A DNA stretch of 22,142 bases, from the UHGV virus genome UHGV-0075672; one strand, given 5' to 3'. This document shows positions 18,001 through 21,000 of the stretch, piece after piece. This stretch comes from a virus. The position numbers are program-made. Position 1 is the first letter of the stretch. Each line of letters starts with the position of its first letter.

Positions 18001-21000
18001 GCTCGTTACCATCGGCAGAACGGGTTCAGGATTGGGTTTGTGAAGTTGTCCTCCCAGCCCTGATGGAGACAGGAACTTACAGCCTTAAACAGGAGAAAAG
18101 TACACCATCAAACGGCCTTCCTGAATACCGCAAAGCTAAAGCGCTGAAAATGGAAATGGAGGTTATCTCAAGCGTTCTGGATCGTTTACCGCACCTGGGC
18201 GACAAGGCGAAACAGGCTGCTTACGCCTCAGTGATTAACCGTTCTGCTGGTTTTAATGTTATCCCCCTTCCTGTTCTTGATGAACATCACTACAGTGCAA
18301 CAGAGGTTGGTAAACAGTTTGGCGTCACTGCAAACAAGATCGGTCGCATTGCCAATACCTACATGCTCAAAACAGAACAATACGGGAAATGGTTCATCGA
18401 CAAATCCCCGTATTCGGATAAGCAGGTAGAAAGCTTTCGATACAATAATCGGGGAGTACGGAAGATTGAAGAAATCCTGGAGGCGGAGAACAAAGCAGAG
18501 TTCGGAACCTGATATCCTCCACTCTCCGACGCCGCCAGAATGACGGCGCGGTGGTTAAGCATGAGGCGAAATTTCTGCCGGGCGGTATTTTGTTGAGAGA
18601 TGAGATACGTCAACTTCTCTTTCCGCTTTTTCGAGGCTCCATGCCGTCTGGAGACGAATCCATGAAGACGGAGTTCCACCCAGGACAGCAGCGAGACGAA
18701 CAGCCATTTCAGGAGATATTGTCGCATTACCTGAAACCAGTCGCTGAACAGTGGAAGGCGCGACATCAAGCGCTCTTGCCAGTTCCCTGATTCCAATATT
18801 CTGATCTTCCAGAATATCAGCAATAATTTCTCCGGGATGAGGGGGATTAAACATCGTCATTTAGTGGTAATCAAACATTTATGGCCTGAATCCCGTTTTT
18901 TTCAATAACGGAAAGAAGTCGCAGGGCGGGACCACCAGGGCGTTTCACTCCGCGTTCCCAGTCAGATATCAGGTTTTTACTGACATTCATATATCTGGCA
19001 AAGACGGGTTGTGACAGATGTTCACGCTCACGGAGTGCCCGGATTCTTTCAGGAGACATTGAAGGTGCTGGTTGCAGGCAGAGTTCATCGAATTCTCGCA
19101 TAGTCTGTTTCGTTACTGCGCCGATATCATGAAGCGATTCCATCATTTCATGTACGGATGCAAGCGCATCACTGCGGTAATTTTTACTCATTGGGTACCT
19201 CCGTAAACTGACCCTGTAGAATCAGTTGTGCCAGTTGTTCATCTGTTAGATTGAGTACGTGAGGTGCAGCCTTCCGAAATGTGCTTTCCTCAGTAGCGGT
19301 TATATTTTCACGTTCATTTTTTGCGTATGCATATACGAAAAAGGCCCTTGTGCCGACGCGATAGAAAATGATTGTGCGATAACCGCCAGATTTGCCGCCA
19401 CCGACTCGTGGCAGACGTTGCTTGATAACGCCGTTACCCAGGTTTGCTGAGATAAGCCCGTTATCAGCCTGTTTAACAATTTCGCGCAGTGACTGGTCGG
19501 ATATTTTGTTTTTGCGTGCAAATCGCTCAAACCAGGCGTTTTTAAAAATGCGCATTTTTTGTTCCGTTATTAATGTATAACACATAGTATTACATTGCGT
19601 AGGGATCTGCAATGCCATCAGTTTGACAACGTCGCGTATCCGGGATTATATTCTCCGCACGCCAGCAAAATCTGGCGTCGGGATTGAGACCCCGGATATT
19701 CAACCGCGACAGACACACGCCGCGAGCGTGTTTTTTATTGTCGTATGCACACGCACATCTGAATTATGGTGGGGCGTATGGGGCAGCCGAAAGGCTGGCC
19801 GGTTGGTTGATCCGGTAGTCTCAACCCTGTACGTCTCGCCACCCGATGATTGAGACCTGACGGTGGTGAATGAAAAACTCATCAACCGGAGGTGTCACTA
19901 TGACAACTCAAATCTCTGTTGAAACTCTTGCTGCGATTACTCACAACCAAACCCCTGTAATTACCACTGAGTTGTTGGCGCATCTTTATGGTGCGGACGT
20001 TAAGAATATTCAAAACAACTTTGCAAGGAATGTAGGACGCTTTCAGATTGGAAAGCACTTTTTTAAGATCGAAGGTGAAGAGTTACGTGAATTGAAGCAC
20101 AGACCATCTTTAAGTGGGTCTGTGAAAATCGCCCGTAACGTTCGTTCCCTCATCCTCTGGACAGAACGCGGCGCTGCCCGTCATGCAAAAATGCTCGAAA
20201 CCGATCGGGCGTGGGAGGTGTTCGAAAAACTGGAAGACTGCTATTTCAGTCAAAAAATCCCAGAACAACTTCAGCTTCCAGAATCAACGCTATCTATCAA
20301 CTACCCTCTATCGTGGTTTTCAGAGCATCACCCCTACTCCATGATGAGCTATGTTGATCGAAAAACTCTTAACCTGGACGTTTCCGTGCTCTTCGATATG
20401 CCAAGCCCAACTATGCGCATCCTCAACGAGCTACACAGCAAGGGCTATAACGTTGACGCCGCTGTTGCTGAATTTAACGCCTTCAAACATCTGACGGAAG
20501 AAATGCGCCGTACTCTACAGGATATTTCAAGACTGTCAGATCGAAATTCCCGAAAAGGCTTCTCGTTAAGCCTCTGACTTCCCCACCCCGACATCCCGTC
20601 GGGGTTTTCATATCTGGAGACAAAAATTTGAAACAGATCGCTTTCTACAGGCGTTCTGGAAGGCCCGGTGTCTTCCGTGGGTTAAAAGAACGCGTCACCT
20701 GGATGATTCAGTCTCGTGGTCGTCCTGTTACTGGCAGTGAAATAGCAGAGAAATTTGGTGTTTCACTTTGCGAGTTCAACAAGGTAGCTCGCAGCCTGAC
20801 AAAAGGCAGTAAGGTTGTGAAAATCAAGGCTTCAGAGTCATTCACCACAGACACCGGAATCGTTGATCGCTTTTTCTCCCTCGAATCAAATCCTCGTCGT
20901 GACACACCTCGTTCACGCAATGCCGTTCCTCCATTCAGTCGCAGAAGCCGTGAACACGCAGCAAAAAACTGCCGCGAGGAATACGAGCAAAAGGCCAAAC

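Follow-up and report, generated by a model that had tools for sequence, protein, structure and literature searches.

A probable P1 immI-type IsrK-C4 antisense RNA cassette, with a proposed decoy leader, silencing an antirepressor gene in an E. coli lambdoid prophage

The immI operon of phages P1 and P7, with its c4 antisense RNA, icd and ant1/ant2, was reportedly described by Citron and Schuster in 1990. The P1 record AF234172 annotates the elements a1, b1, C4 (77 nt), a2 lying 3 nt after C4, and b2, whose end lies 10 nt ahead of the start codon, and carries the remark 'repression of icd ant translation'. The c4 RNA represses Ant synthesis in trans (PMC8546580, PMC12197685). A related locus, isrK-orf45(STnc1160)-anrP, was analyzed in the Salmonella prophage Gifsy-1 by Hershko-Shalev et al. 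2016 (PMC4825925). Mutation of the pairs G28-C162 and G31-C159 derepressed anrP, and compensatory mutations partly restored its control; IsrK provided in trans increased anrP translation 139-fold and a transcriptional fusion 8-fold (PMC4825925). STnc1160 is an ~80-nt RNA processed from the read-through transcript, and its co-expression with IsrK made growth arrest stronger, not weaker; to account for their results, the authors invoked orf45 coupling and alternative cis structures, and did not assign C4 the role of a trans repressor (PMC4825925). In the same paper, seqA and CI of the satellite phage P4 are presented as structural homologues of IsrK and C4, CI causing premature termination (PMC4825925). 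The name 'IsrK-C4 immunity system' was used explicitly by Barquist et al. 2013 (PMC3632133); besides P4 immunity, the known systems of this sort include the anti-immunity small RNA of N15. A 2025 review treats IsrK, "orf45"/STnc1160 and c4 as separate items (PMC12197685).

We analyzed positions 19623-19899 of the virus genome UHGV-0075672, in a window (the whole stretch of DNA considered) of 22,142 nucleotides. This region is a member of the known phage RNA-switch type represented by the P1 "c4" and Salmonella "IsrK" system; it is carried by an E. coli lambdoid prophage and has its own set of recognition sequences. The device is not new, and the elements noticed in a previous sequence-only reading are real: the promoter TTGACA-N17-TTATAT, the hairpin 19661-78, the terminator, both copies of GATTGAGACC and GTCTCAA at 19818-24 are all found where that reading had put them. 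Considering the whole arrangement, we conclude that the region is probably a P1 immI-type 'IsrK-C4' antisense RNA cassette that silences the prophage antirepressor, its leader competing for C4 as a decoy. The features of the cassette are the following.

19623..19652, plus strand: sigma-70 promoter (TTGACA 19623-28, N17, TTATAT 19646-51; 11/12 matches in a promoter scan as N18 + TATATT 19647-52)
19659..19738, plus strand: IsrK-type leader RNA, equivalent of the P1 'a1 b1' element (Rfam isrK RF01394 and predicted fold)
19682..19691, plus strand: a1, GATTGAGACC, variable core TTGAGAC 19684-90; upstream C4 target, situated in the hairpin 2 loop of the leader
19700..19705, plus strand: b1, TCAACC, upstream copy of the second C4 target
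19714..19738, plus strand: Rho-independent terminator of the leader (stem ACACGC/GCGTGT 19715-31, T-run to 19737)
19762..19846, plus strand: C4 antisense RNA gene (Rfam C4 RF01695)
19805..19811, plus strand: b', GGTTGAT, loop of C4 hairpin 2
19815..19828, plus strand: a', GGTAGTCTCAACCC, single-stranded joint of C4, core GTCTCAA 19818-24
19848..19857, plus strand: a2, GATTGAGACC, core 19850-56; target copy just 3' of C4, on the antirepressor mRNA
19862..19869, plus strand: GGTGGTGA, conserved repeat of the C4 5' acceptor strand (95% paired, with covariation)
19881..19887, plus strand: b2, ATCAACC, target copy directly adjoining the Shine-Dalgarno
19888..19892, plus strand: Shine-Dalgarno GGAGG of the antirepressor gene, 7 nt before ATG 19900
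19900..20577, plus strand: antirepressor-type gene with an ORF6N domain, 225 aa (Pfam ORF6N 68.5 bits; RefSeq annotation)
10417..10663, plus strand: paralogous cassette, the 'first' one of the earlier reading, with the same layout and different repeats

The GGAGG ribosome-binding site had also been recognized, and we only correct its location to 19888-92. Two components of the list had escaped notice, namely the ~76-nt tRNA-like C4 RNA (19768-19843) and the second determinant b1/b'/b2, one element of which touches the Shine-Dalgarno.

The leader is matched over its full length by the Rfam model isrK RF01394 (73.6 bits, E=2.6e-14, 19659-19736; gathering score 50), and the model c4-a1b1 RF03163 ('a1, b1 targets of C4') reaches 46.3 bits at 19646-98, which is 0.4 below its gathering score of 46.7. 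Among 74 distinct upstream sequences, TTGAC and TATATT are kept at the same distance from the leader, and the predicted transcription start, ~19659, agrees both with the start of the isrK model and with the Gifsy-1 numbering. The arrangement is that of isrK, an RNA also characterized by Hfq binding and by trans-activation through its short isoform: the leader measures ~77 nt and carries a pair of 5' hairpins ahead of a Rho-independent terminator, with an antirepressor gene behind it. Hairpin 1 (19659-78, stem CGCCAG/CTGGCG at 19661-78) precedes hairpin 2 (19679-94), which exposes a1 in its loop, and a tail bearing b1 leads to the intrinsic terminator. The hairpins are backed by compensatory changes, and the T-run is present in 84/84 family loci by the way the loci were selected. 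A scan of the window for a LexA box (CTGT-N8-ACAG), which could place the cassette promoters under SOS control, returned none.

Downstream of the terminator, the Rfam model C4 RF01695 scores 70.6 bits (E=3.4e-12; gathering score 45), and P1's own C4 scores 68.8 bits. The RNA has the ~77-87 nt length, the long closing stem, the two internal hairpins and the single-stranded joint of C4; its a' and b' are complementary to a2 and b2 downstream, b2 being at the ribosome-binding site, and the targets are duplicated upstream as a1 and b1 in the leader. Folding gave a tRNA-like structure (MFE -43 kcal/mol, z = -5.13, MFE identical to the centroid) in which a' and b' are unpaired, and 16 of its stem pairs show compensatory changes. 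Alignment to the 77-nt C4 annotated in P1 predicts a mature C4 spanning 19768-19843 (76 nt). It lies on the same strand as its target and behind a single conserved promoter, and its AUUAU/GGUGGG and GCCACC ends align with those of P1 C4; this suggests that C4 may be excised from the transcript of its own target, with RNase P making the 5' end, and may act in trans.

The evidence against a chance origin comes from the comparison of homologues. In the 22-kb window, exact GATTGAGACC occurs only at 19682-91 and 19848-57. Across 69 distinct homologous leaders, the 15 pairs of a1:a' are paired in 98.1% of cells with 83 double-change cells, and the 9 pairs of a':a2 in 95.5% of cells with 82 double-change cells. 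For a1:a' and a':a2 alike, 0/500 shuffles matched the observed percentage of pairing, double-change count and covariation score, and slid controls were only 22-52% paired. The 69 loci include 11 distinct a classes; a1 is the exact complement of a' in 66/69 leaders, and a2 in 65/69. Moreover, the Gifsy-1 pairs G28-C162 and G31-C159 are a1:a' pairs, with a numbering that is reproduced exactly by a Gifsy-1-type locus of our set (L004), and their counterparts here are 19686-19822 and 19689-19819. The claim that this is a real regulatory device and not a coincidence is well borne out by the Rfam E-values (2.6e-14 and 3.4e-12) together with the covariation in the 69 leaders and the 0/500 shuffles. 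In the MFE of the downstream mRNA, a2 also pairs with the Shine-Dalgarno; this was set aside as the other specificity classes are unable to form it.

The second determinant behaves in the same way. The longest complement of b' to its own b1 averages 6.3 nt versus 3.5 nt for non-self combinations, and for b2 the values are 7.0 nt versus 4.1 nt; the 69 loci have 30 distinct b' loops and 41 a/b combinations. Here, b' and b2 can form 7 Watson-Crick pairs, with 2 possible G-U pairs extending into the Shine-Dalgarno. Observed directly for this cassette are the elements at 19623-19899 and their homologies, the covariation among the three copies, and the spatial arrangement around the ribosome-binding site. 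In many homologues b2 overlaps the Shine-Dalgarno, whereas here it adjoins it, a2 lying 32-38 nt upstream; both points count against our preferred explanation. Between a2 and b2, GGTGGTGA has two pairing options, either with the C4 3' strand TCGCCACC (19836-43), which would place a2 inside a loop, or with 19879-87, forming a hairpin just before the ribosome-binding site; its alignment columns 197/229 covary (AU 52, GC 10, GU 5).

The gene at 19900-20577 has ~86% DNA identity to Stx-phage genes annotated as anti-repressor; the ant gene of Phi24B has been studied (PMC3064807). An upstream ATG at 19870 was rejected as its start, the conserved start being 19900. Looking for an icd-like ORF between b2 and the antirepressor gene, as in P1 immI, where ant expression requires that icd be translated, we found none, b2 and the Shine-Dalgarno directly preceding the 19900 gene.

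The recurrence of the same logic at a second locus with different repeats, also put forward from the sequence, holds as well: 10417-10663 has the same layout and orthogonal repeats, with CTGAACAC and GTGTTCA as one pair and TGCAAAG and CTTTGCA as the other. Its features, all on the plus strand, are these.

TTGACA 10417-22 and TATATT 10441-46, plus strand: promoter
10460-67, plus strand: a1, CTGAACAC
10472-78, plus strand: b1, TGCAAAG
~10485-10512, plus strand: weak terminator
10532-10620, plus strand: C4-like sRNA-Xcc1
10586-92 and 10595-601, plus strand: b' CTTTGCA and a' GTGTTCA
10619-26 and 10644-50, plus strand: a2, and b2 TGCAAAG overlapping the Shine-Dalgarno AAGGA
10661, plus strand: ATG start of the gene, encoding an AntA-domain protein

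The leader of this cassette matches no Rfam family even at E <= 1, so its a1 and b1 are assigned by sequence inspection only. The region of the BRO-N gene (17415-18512) was considered as a third cassette and rejected: it has a promoter-like site and no C4-like RNA.

How could the cassette at 19623-19899 work? By analogy with P1 and Gifsy-1, from which C4 processing, repression in trans and the decoy role of the leader are taken, the conserved sigma-70 promoter (19623-52) would start transcription near 19659, and the intrinsic terminator would stop most transcripts, yielding an ~78-nt IsrK-like leader that shows a1 (UUGAGAC) and b1 (UCAACC). Transcripts reading through would hold the tRNA-like C4 (~19768-19843), which, by homology with P1, would be excised with RNase P cutting its 5' end. 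C4 would act in trans on the read-through mRNA, its a' (GUCUCAA, in the joint) pairing with a2 (19850-56) and its b' (GGUUGAU, in the loop) with b2 (19881-87); since b2 adjoins the Shine-Dalgarno GGAGG, this pairing would block 30S binding, leaving the ORF6N antirepressor unmade. As the leader offers C4 a longer continuous a+b complement, it would compete for C4 as a decoy, or anti-antisense, and the antirepressor would appear only when the leader outnumbers free C4. Pairing energies with C4 are consistent with this competition, being -31.4 kcal/mol for the leader a+b versus -13 kcal/mol for a2 alone; these values are loop-restricted only, and whole-RNA RNAduplex values, in which intramolecular structure is ignored, were dropped. 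A simple picture of a repressor plus a decoy does not fit the co-expression of STnc1160 and IsrK in Gifsy-1, where growth arrest was stronger, not weaker. The homologous RNA of P4, which controls transcription termination and not translation, also speaks against it.

The P4 behavior leads to the alternative that survives best, although we consider it rather unlikely as the main mode of control: processed C4 would base-pair with the nascent leader at a1/b1 (as well as with a2/b2) and enforce termination, and the antirepressor level would be governed chiefly by how often the isrK terminator is read through, and less by translation. Such control is compatible with C4 occlusion of the ribosome-binding site, and the idea was raised by the Gifsy-1 authors themselves (PMC4825925). 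Indeed, the longest complementarity to C4 (the -31.4 kcal/mol above), which covaries, is that of a1/b1, situated immediately 5' of the intrinsic terminator; P4 CI, a C4 homologue, causes premature termination according to that paper; and IsrK in trans did raise the Gifsy-1 transcriptional fusion 8-fold (PMC4825925). On the contrary, the translational effect in Gifsy-1 was far larger (139-fold, PMC4825925), we found no conserved antiterminator alternative in the leader, and a pure termination mechanism leaves the conserved position of b2 at the Shine-Dalgarno unexplained.

The model published for Gifsy-1 appears improbable for this cassette. It proposes that the read-through RNA adopts an inactive structure A, with the a1 region of the leader paired in cis with the C4 region, and that short IsrK opens it in trans, allowing translation of 'orf45', a small ORF within the C4 region, to which antirepressor translation is coupled. 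Mutational and gel evidence supports it directly in Gifsy-1 (PMC4825925); in our window, a1 and a' are paired in cis in the MFE structure of the entire read-through RNA, like structure A, and both start codons of orf45 have counterparts, ATG 19766 and ATG 19778. However, coupling of orf45 to the antirepressor does not hold here, the equivalent ORF stopping after 14 codons (TGA 19808-10), 90 nt before the ant ATG. In the family, orf45 ranges from 8 to >100 codons (open to the end of the stretch examined), and 45 codons with overlap of the ant start occur only in Gifsy-1-type loci; the Gifsy-1 paper itself reportedly noted that its amino-acid sequence varies (PMC12197685). What is conserved instead is the C4 fold and a2/b2, unused by the published model. 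As orf45 is not conserved, the reading that applies more generally to such cassettes is that of P1, in which the ribosome-binding site is occluded.

Still less probable, to the point of being very doubtful, is the mechanism of the sequence-only reading, in which regulation acts on a cis hairpin between GTCTCAA and GATTGAGACC near the ribosome-binding site, and the terminated leader serves as a trans repressor specific to its own antirepressor. The complementarity and covariation of the two sequences stand, and the sequence of the mRNA site is indeed present in the leader as well. The simple cis hairpin does not stand: GTCTCAA is the unpaired joint of the highly stable and conserved C4 fold, and 31 nt separate the end of the proposed hairpin from the Shine-Dalgarno. 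Being identical and not complementary to the mRNA site, the leader cannot pair with it and can only compete. By P1 homology the repressor is C4 (AF234172; PMC8546580, PMC12197685), and in Gifsy-1, the sole homologue tested, the short leader activates antirepressor translation in trans (PMC4825925). Chance repeats without function, for which the short repeat length is the only argument, can be dismissed given Rfam E-values of 1e-12 to 1e-14 and three-way covariation over 11 a classes and 30 b' loops, the a1:a' and a':a2 tests refuting them.

The discovery value of the cassette itself is small, as curated Rfam models recognise both RNAs, the P1 layout has base-level annotation, and the Salmonella Gifsy-1 locus, a close homologue, has already been dissected. 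The comparative data nonetheless show, with clean evidence for both target pairs, that IsrK, "orf45"/STnc1160 and c4 are one system. Close relatives of the cassette and its antirepressor gene are found in many Stx-converting phages and in 808/5426 complete E. coli genomes, strain SCU-104 giving matches at 4 places; therefore, this control may bear on prophage induction and so on toxin induction. Tentatively, we would also extend the proposal, as a possibility that we hold to be short of even, to lambdoid IsrK-C4 cassettes in general: they might be co-transcribed three-part circuits of decoy leader (a1b1), antisense RNA (a'b') and mRNA site (a2b2), with an output set by the ratio of terminated to read-through transcripts and not by Gifsy-1-style orf45 coupling, the two determinants recombining independently into a large natural set of orthogonal 'immunity codes'. 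If so, several antirepressors per prophage, or several prophages per cell, could be controlled without cross-talk.

Among the known systems, P4 immunity (seqA, CI RNA (seqB), seqC) resembles the cassette: a single transcript brings together a first target within an IsrK-like leader, a processed C4-like RNA and another target further downstream, and short complementary sequences set the specificity. It differs in its outcome, which is premature transcription termination, and in controlling replication genes with no antirepressor, whereas an antirepressor gene is present here. Gifsy-1 shows homology in the leader, in the C4 region and at the beginning of the antirepressor gene; it is also a lambdoid prophage with an antirepressor starting MTTQ..., and a1:a' pairing is proven there. 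It differs in specificity class (UUGGCGU/CGGUGAU versus UUGAGAC/GGUUGAU here), in orf45 (45 codons overlapping the anrP start versus 14 codons here) and in a published model that uses neither a2/b2 nor C4 as a repressor. In P1, the a/b sequences are UUUGACA/GUUAGUG versus UUGAGAC/UCAACC here, Ant1/Ant2 stand in place of the ORF6N antirepressor, and b2 here lies directly before the antirepressor with no icd-like ORF; the leader here is a strong isrK with a canonical terminator, whereas the P1 leader scores 35 bits on isrK, a weak match that includes the terminator, and the setting is the early-left operon of a lambdoid prophage, near int, versus a plasmid prophage with a C1 operator. Despite these differences, P1 and the cassette share the same order with near-identical spacing (promoter, a1, b1, a terminator-like hairpin, C4, a2, b2 by the Shine-Dalgarno, gene), homologous C4 RNAs under the same Rfam model (70.6 bits here versus 68.8 bits), two determinants with a' in the joint and b' in the loop, a GGUGG-type element after a2 able to pair with the C4 3' strand, and, as target, an antirepressor operon read from the same promoter.

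Cassette 2 (19623-19899), the promoter-leader-terminator-C4 region before the antirepressor gene, belongs to an already known kind of regulatory system, with its own a/b code. The sequence-only reading had paired GTCTCAA with a repeat in a hairpin upstream of GGAGG and had considered the leader RNA a repressor of its own antirepressor. All the elements it named were present when 19300-20400 was read, and the regulatory device is real, but it had missed the C4 RNA core and the b determinant and had the leader acting in the wrong direction. An Rfam scan at gathering thresholds identified an isrK RNA at 19659-19736 (73.6 bits, E 2.6e-14) and a C4 antisense RNA at 19762-19846 (70.6 bits, E 3.4e-12); in a permissive scan, 19646-19698 also scored 46.3 bits on the family 'a1, b1 targets of C4 antisense RNA', just short of its gathering score (46.7). 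The predicted mature C4 (19768-19843), whose ends were set by alignment with the annotated 77-nt C4 of P1, adopts the family structure (MFE -43 kcal/mol, z -5.13), leaving unpaired the joint UAGUCUCA (determinant a', which includes GTCTCAA) and the hairpin 2 loop UUGGUUGAU (determinant b'). Because the C4 joint holds GTCTCAA, the repeat, whose exact sequence occurs at only two sites in the 22-kb window, represents a1 and a2, the target copies in the leader and in the antirepressor mRNA.

Features of the two cassettes
19623-19628: promoter, TTGACA, with TTATAT 17 nt on, or with N18 and TATATT (11/12 in a consensus scan)
19661-19678: leader hairpin
19682-19691: a1, GATTGAGACC, in the loop of leader hairpin 2
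19700-19705: b1, TCAACC, in the leader tail
19715-19731: stem of the leader terminator, then a T-run
19805-19811: b', GGTTGAT, complementary to b1 and b2
19818-19824: GTCTCAA
19848-19857: a2, second copy of the repeat, directly 3' of C4
19881-19887: b2, ATCAACC, abutting the Shine-Dalgarno sequence
19888-19892: Shine-Dalgarno GGAGG, with ATG 7 nt further on at 19900
10460-10467 and 10619-10626: cassette 1 a, CTGAACAC, against GTGTTCA at 10595-10601
10472-10478 and 10644-10650: cassette 1 b, TGCAAAG, against CTTTGCA at 10586-10592

The gene next after C4 (19900-20577) encodes an ORF6N domain and shows about 86% DNA identity to genes of Stx-converting phages annotated as anti-repressor. The independent recurrence claimed for a second locus was borne out by cassette 1 (10417-10663), which has the same layout with unrelated repeats and sequences: its RNA matches sRNA-Xcc1, a C4-like fold, its gene carries an AntA antirepressor domain, and its b copy at 10644-10650 overlaps the Shine-Dalgarno AAGGA. 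In the matching RefSeq record a 'Rha family' gene is annotated from 10526 and thereby spans the C4-like sRNA-Xcc1. A start at ATG 10661, directly preceded by AAGGA and b2, is more plausible.

On its right-hand side the window matches, at 100% identity, a lambdoid prophage beside tRNA-Arg/dsdC in E. coli SCU-104, where the cassette lies within the early-left operon, flanked by recombination genes and int. Directly upstream of the cassette promoter, and divergent from it (18555-19555, minus strand), are genes encoding a HigA-type antitoxin, an HTH protein and a toxin of the RelE family; a sok antitoxin RNA (396-570, minus strand, 118 bits) belongs to a hok/sok module at the prophage edge. Cassette 1 and the cI-like repressor are separated by two ORFs of 489 and 317 aa (about 6738-9157), probably an intact restriction-modification module; SCU-104 lacks them, keeping only a BsuBI/PstI endonuclease fragment, so the window comes from a related strain and not an identical one. 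For most Stx phages, the stretch homologous to the window starts only at 19637, within the promoter spacer. The promoter elements TTGAC and TATATT, 17-18 nt apart, are conserved across loci at a constant distance from the leader. Strong conservation of the spacer ATCCGGGG(C/A)TATATT (19638-19652 and homologues) extends beyond the -10 hexamer, and the segment may function as an operator or as part of an extended promoter; no LexA box was found across the whole window.

We searched viral contigs for a degenerate version of the isrK pattern and obtained 84 distinct leader-plus-terminator loci; 69 of these, window included, carry the same type of C4 and were aligned. Results showed that the a1 core falls into 11 classes, with a' its exact complement in 66 of the 69 loci and a2 the exact complement of a' in 65. 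Paired cells amount to 98.1% in the a1:a' helix (15 pairs, 83 double-change cells) and 95.5% in the a':a2 helix (9 pairs, 82 double-change cells); for both, 0 of 500 shuffles reached the observed percentage paired, double-change count and covariation score, and slid controls were 22-52% paired. The b' loops are of 30 kinds, their mean longest complement being 6.3 nt in b1 of their own locus versus 3.5 nt in other loci, and 7.0 versus 4.1 nt in b2, which overlaps the Shine-Dalgarno sequence in many loci. There are 41 combinations of a and b, the two determinants assorting independently, and GGTTGAT, the b' of the window, is found with three a classes (TTGAGAC, TTGGAAC and TTTGCAC). RNAalifold recovered the C4 fold and the two leader hairpins; 16 pairs show compensatory changes. 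The elements, homology, covariation and geometry of cassette 2 are shown by this analysis.

The commonest class (a = TTGGCGT; the Gifsy-1-type locus L004 and similar) has an extra GGCGTC between Shine-Dalgarno and ATG, GGAGGGCGTCA (leader nt 228-238), which could be a further a' target; GAGGGCGTCA is also found in other classes and may be merely conserved 5' gene sequence. In another subgroup with the isrK pattern, a' lies at nt 180-192 and not at about 160 (L006, L022, L039, L061, L066, L078, L079, L082, L086, L089, L102, L109), and the next gene encodes a small protein (MATTPT... or similar), not an ORF6N protein; the subgroup may represent P4-like satellites.

The P1 mechanism most likely holds for cassette 2. 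In it, a' and b' of the processed C4 would bind a2 and b2 and occlude the Shine-Dalgarno sequence of the antirepressor gene, and the terminated leader would compete for C4; we infer C4 processing, action in trans and this decoy role. Through a1 and b1, the leader could form about 26 bp with C4, nearly without interruption (-31.4 kcal/mol versus -12.8 for a2). In Gifsy-1 the operon is transcribed with anrP untranslated, and IsrK in trans increases anrP translation 139-fold (PMC4825925), an activation that competition for C4 would explain. The same study found the about 80-nt STnc1160 processed out of the read-through transcript (PMC4825925); by position and size it is the C4 homologue. However, co-expressing STnc1160 with IsrK strengthened growth arrest (PMC4825925), which does not fit a simple repressor-plus-decoy picture.

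Termination enforced at the leader terminator, as in P4, may operate, perhaps in addition to the P1 mechanism. The published Gifsy-1 structure-switch with orf45 coupling is a second, less likely alternative. The pairs G28-C162 and G31-C159 were demonstrated there by mutation and compensation (PMC4825925), and L004 reproduces that numbering exactly (C18, G28, G31, AUG107, AUG119-121, C159, C162, G173, C175); they are a1:a' pairs (alignment columns 29/179 and 32/176), equivalent to 19686-19822 and 19689-19819. The window's full read-through RNA is likewise predicted to fold with a1:a' in cis, like Gifsy-1 'structure A'. Against coupling, the orf45 frame (ATG at leader nt 107) has only 14 codons in the window (19766-19810), is unconserved across the family (8 to >100 codons, L003-L122), and attains 45 codons and reaches the antirepressor start in Gifsy-1-type loci only; therefore, coupling cannot be the general mechanism. 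AUGGUGGG, the conserved 'start' of orf45, makes up the 5' side of the stem that closes C4.

Past a2 lies GGUGGYGA (19862-19869), a conserved duplicate of the C4 stem 5' strand. It can pair with the 3' strand of C4, the two together spanning 19836-19869 (alignment columns 195-202/224-231; 95% paired); at one position the three strands covary, and in P1 (L123:3412-3440) the repeat is arranged as in the window. This predicted pairing can place a2 in a hairpin loop, and GGUGGYGA might serve as a processing signal or allow an alternative fold. When the downstream mRNA is folded by itself, ACCU (19855-19858) from the 3' portion of a2 pairs with the Shine-Dalgarno AGGU (19890-19893) in the MFE structure, with a z of only -1.8, and other a classes seem unable to form such a pairing; if real, C4 at a2 would free the Shine-Dalgarno sequence, not hide it.

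Among known systems, the P1 GenBank record annotates exactly the window's layout (promoters, a1, b1, C4 RNA, a2, b2), with a2 three nt past C4 and the end of b2 10 nt ahead of the icd start, and carries the comment 'repression of icd ant translation'; P1's own leader matches isrK weakly, terminator hairpin included. Barquist et al. 2013 equated IsrK and C4 with P4 seqA and CI RNA and described an 'IsrK-C4 immunity system' in some lambdoid Salmonella prophages as well as in P4, P1, P7 and N15 (PMC3632133), and in APSE phages the isrK and C4 Rfam pair was already noted beside a BRO-N-domain gene. Cassette 2 has no icd or orf45 coupling ORF and uses an a/b code of its own.
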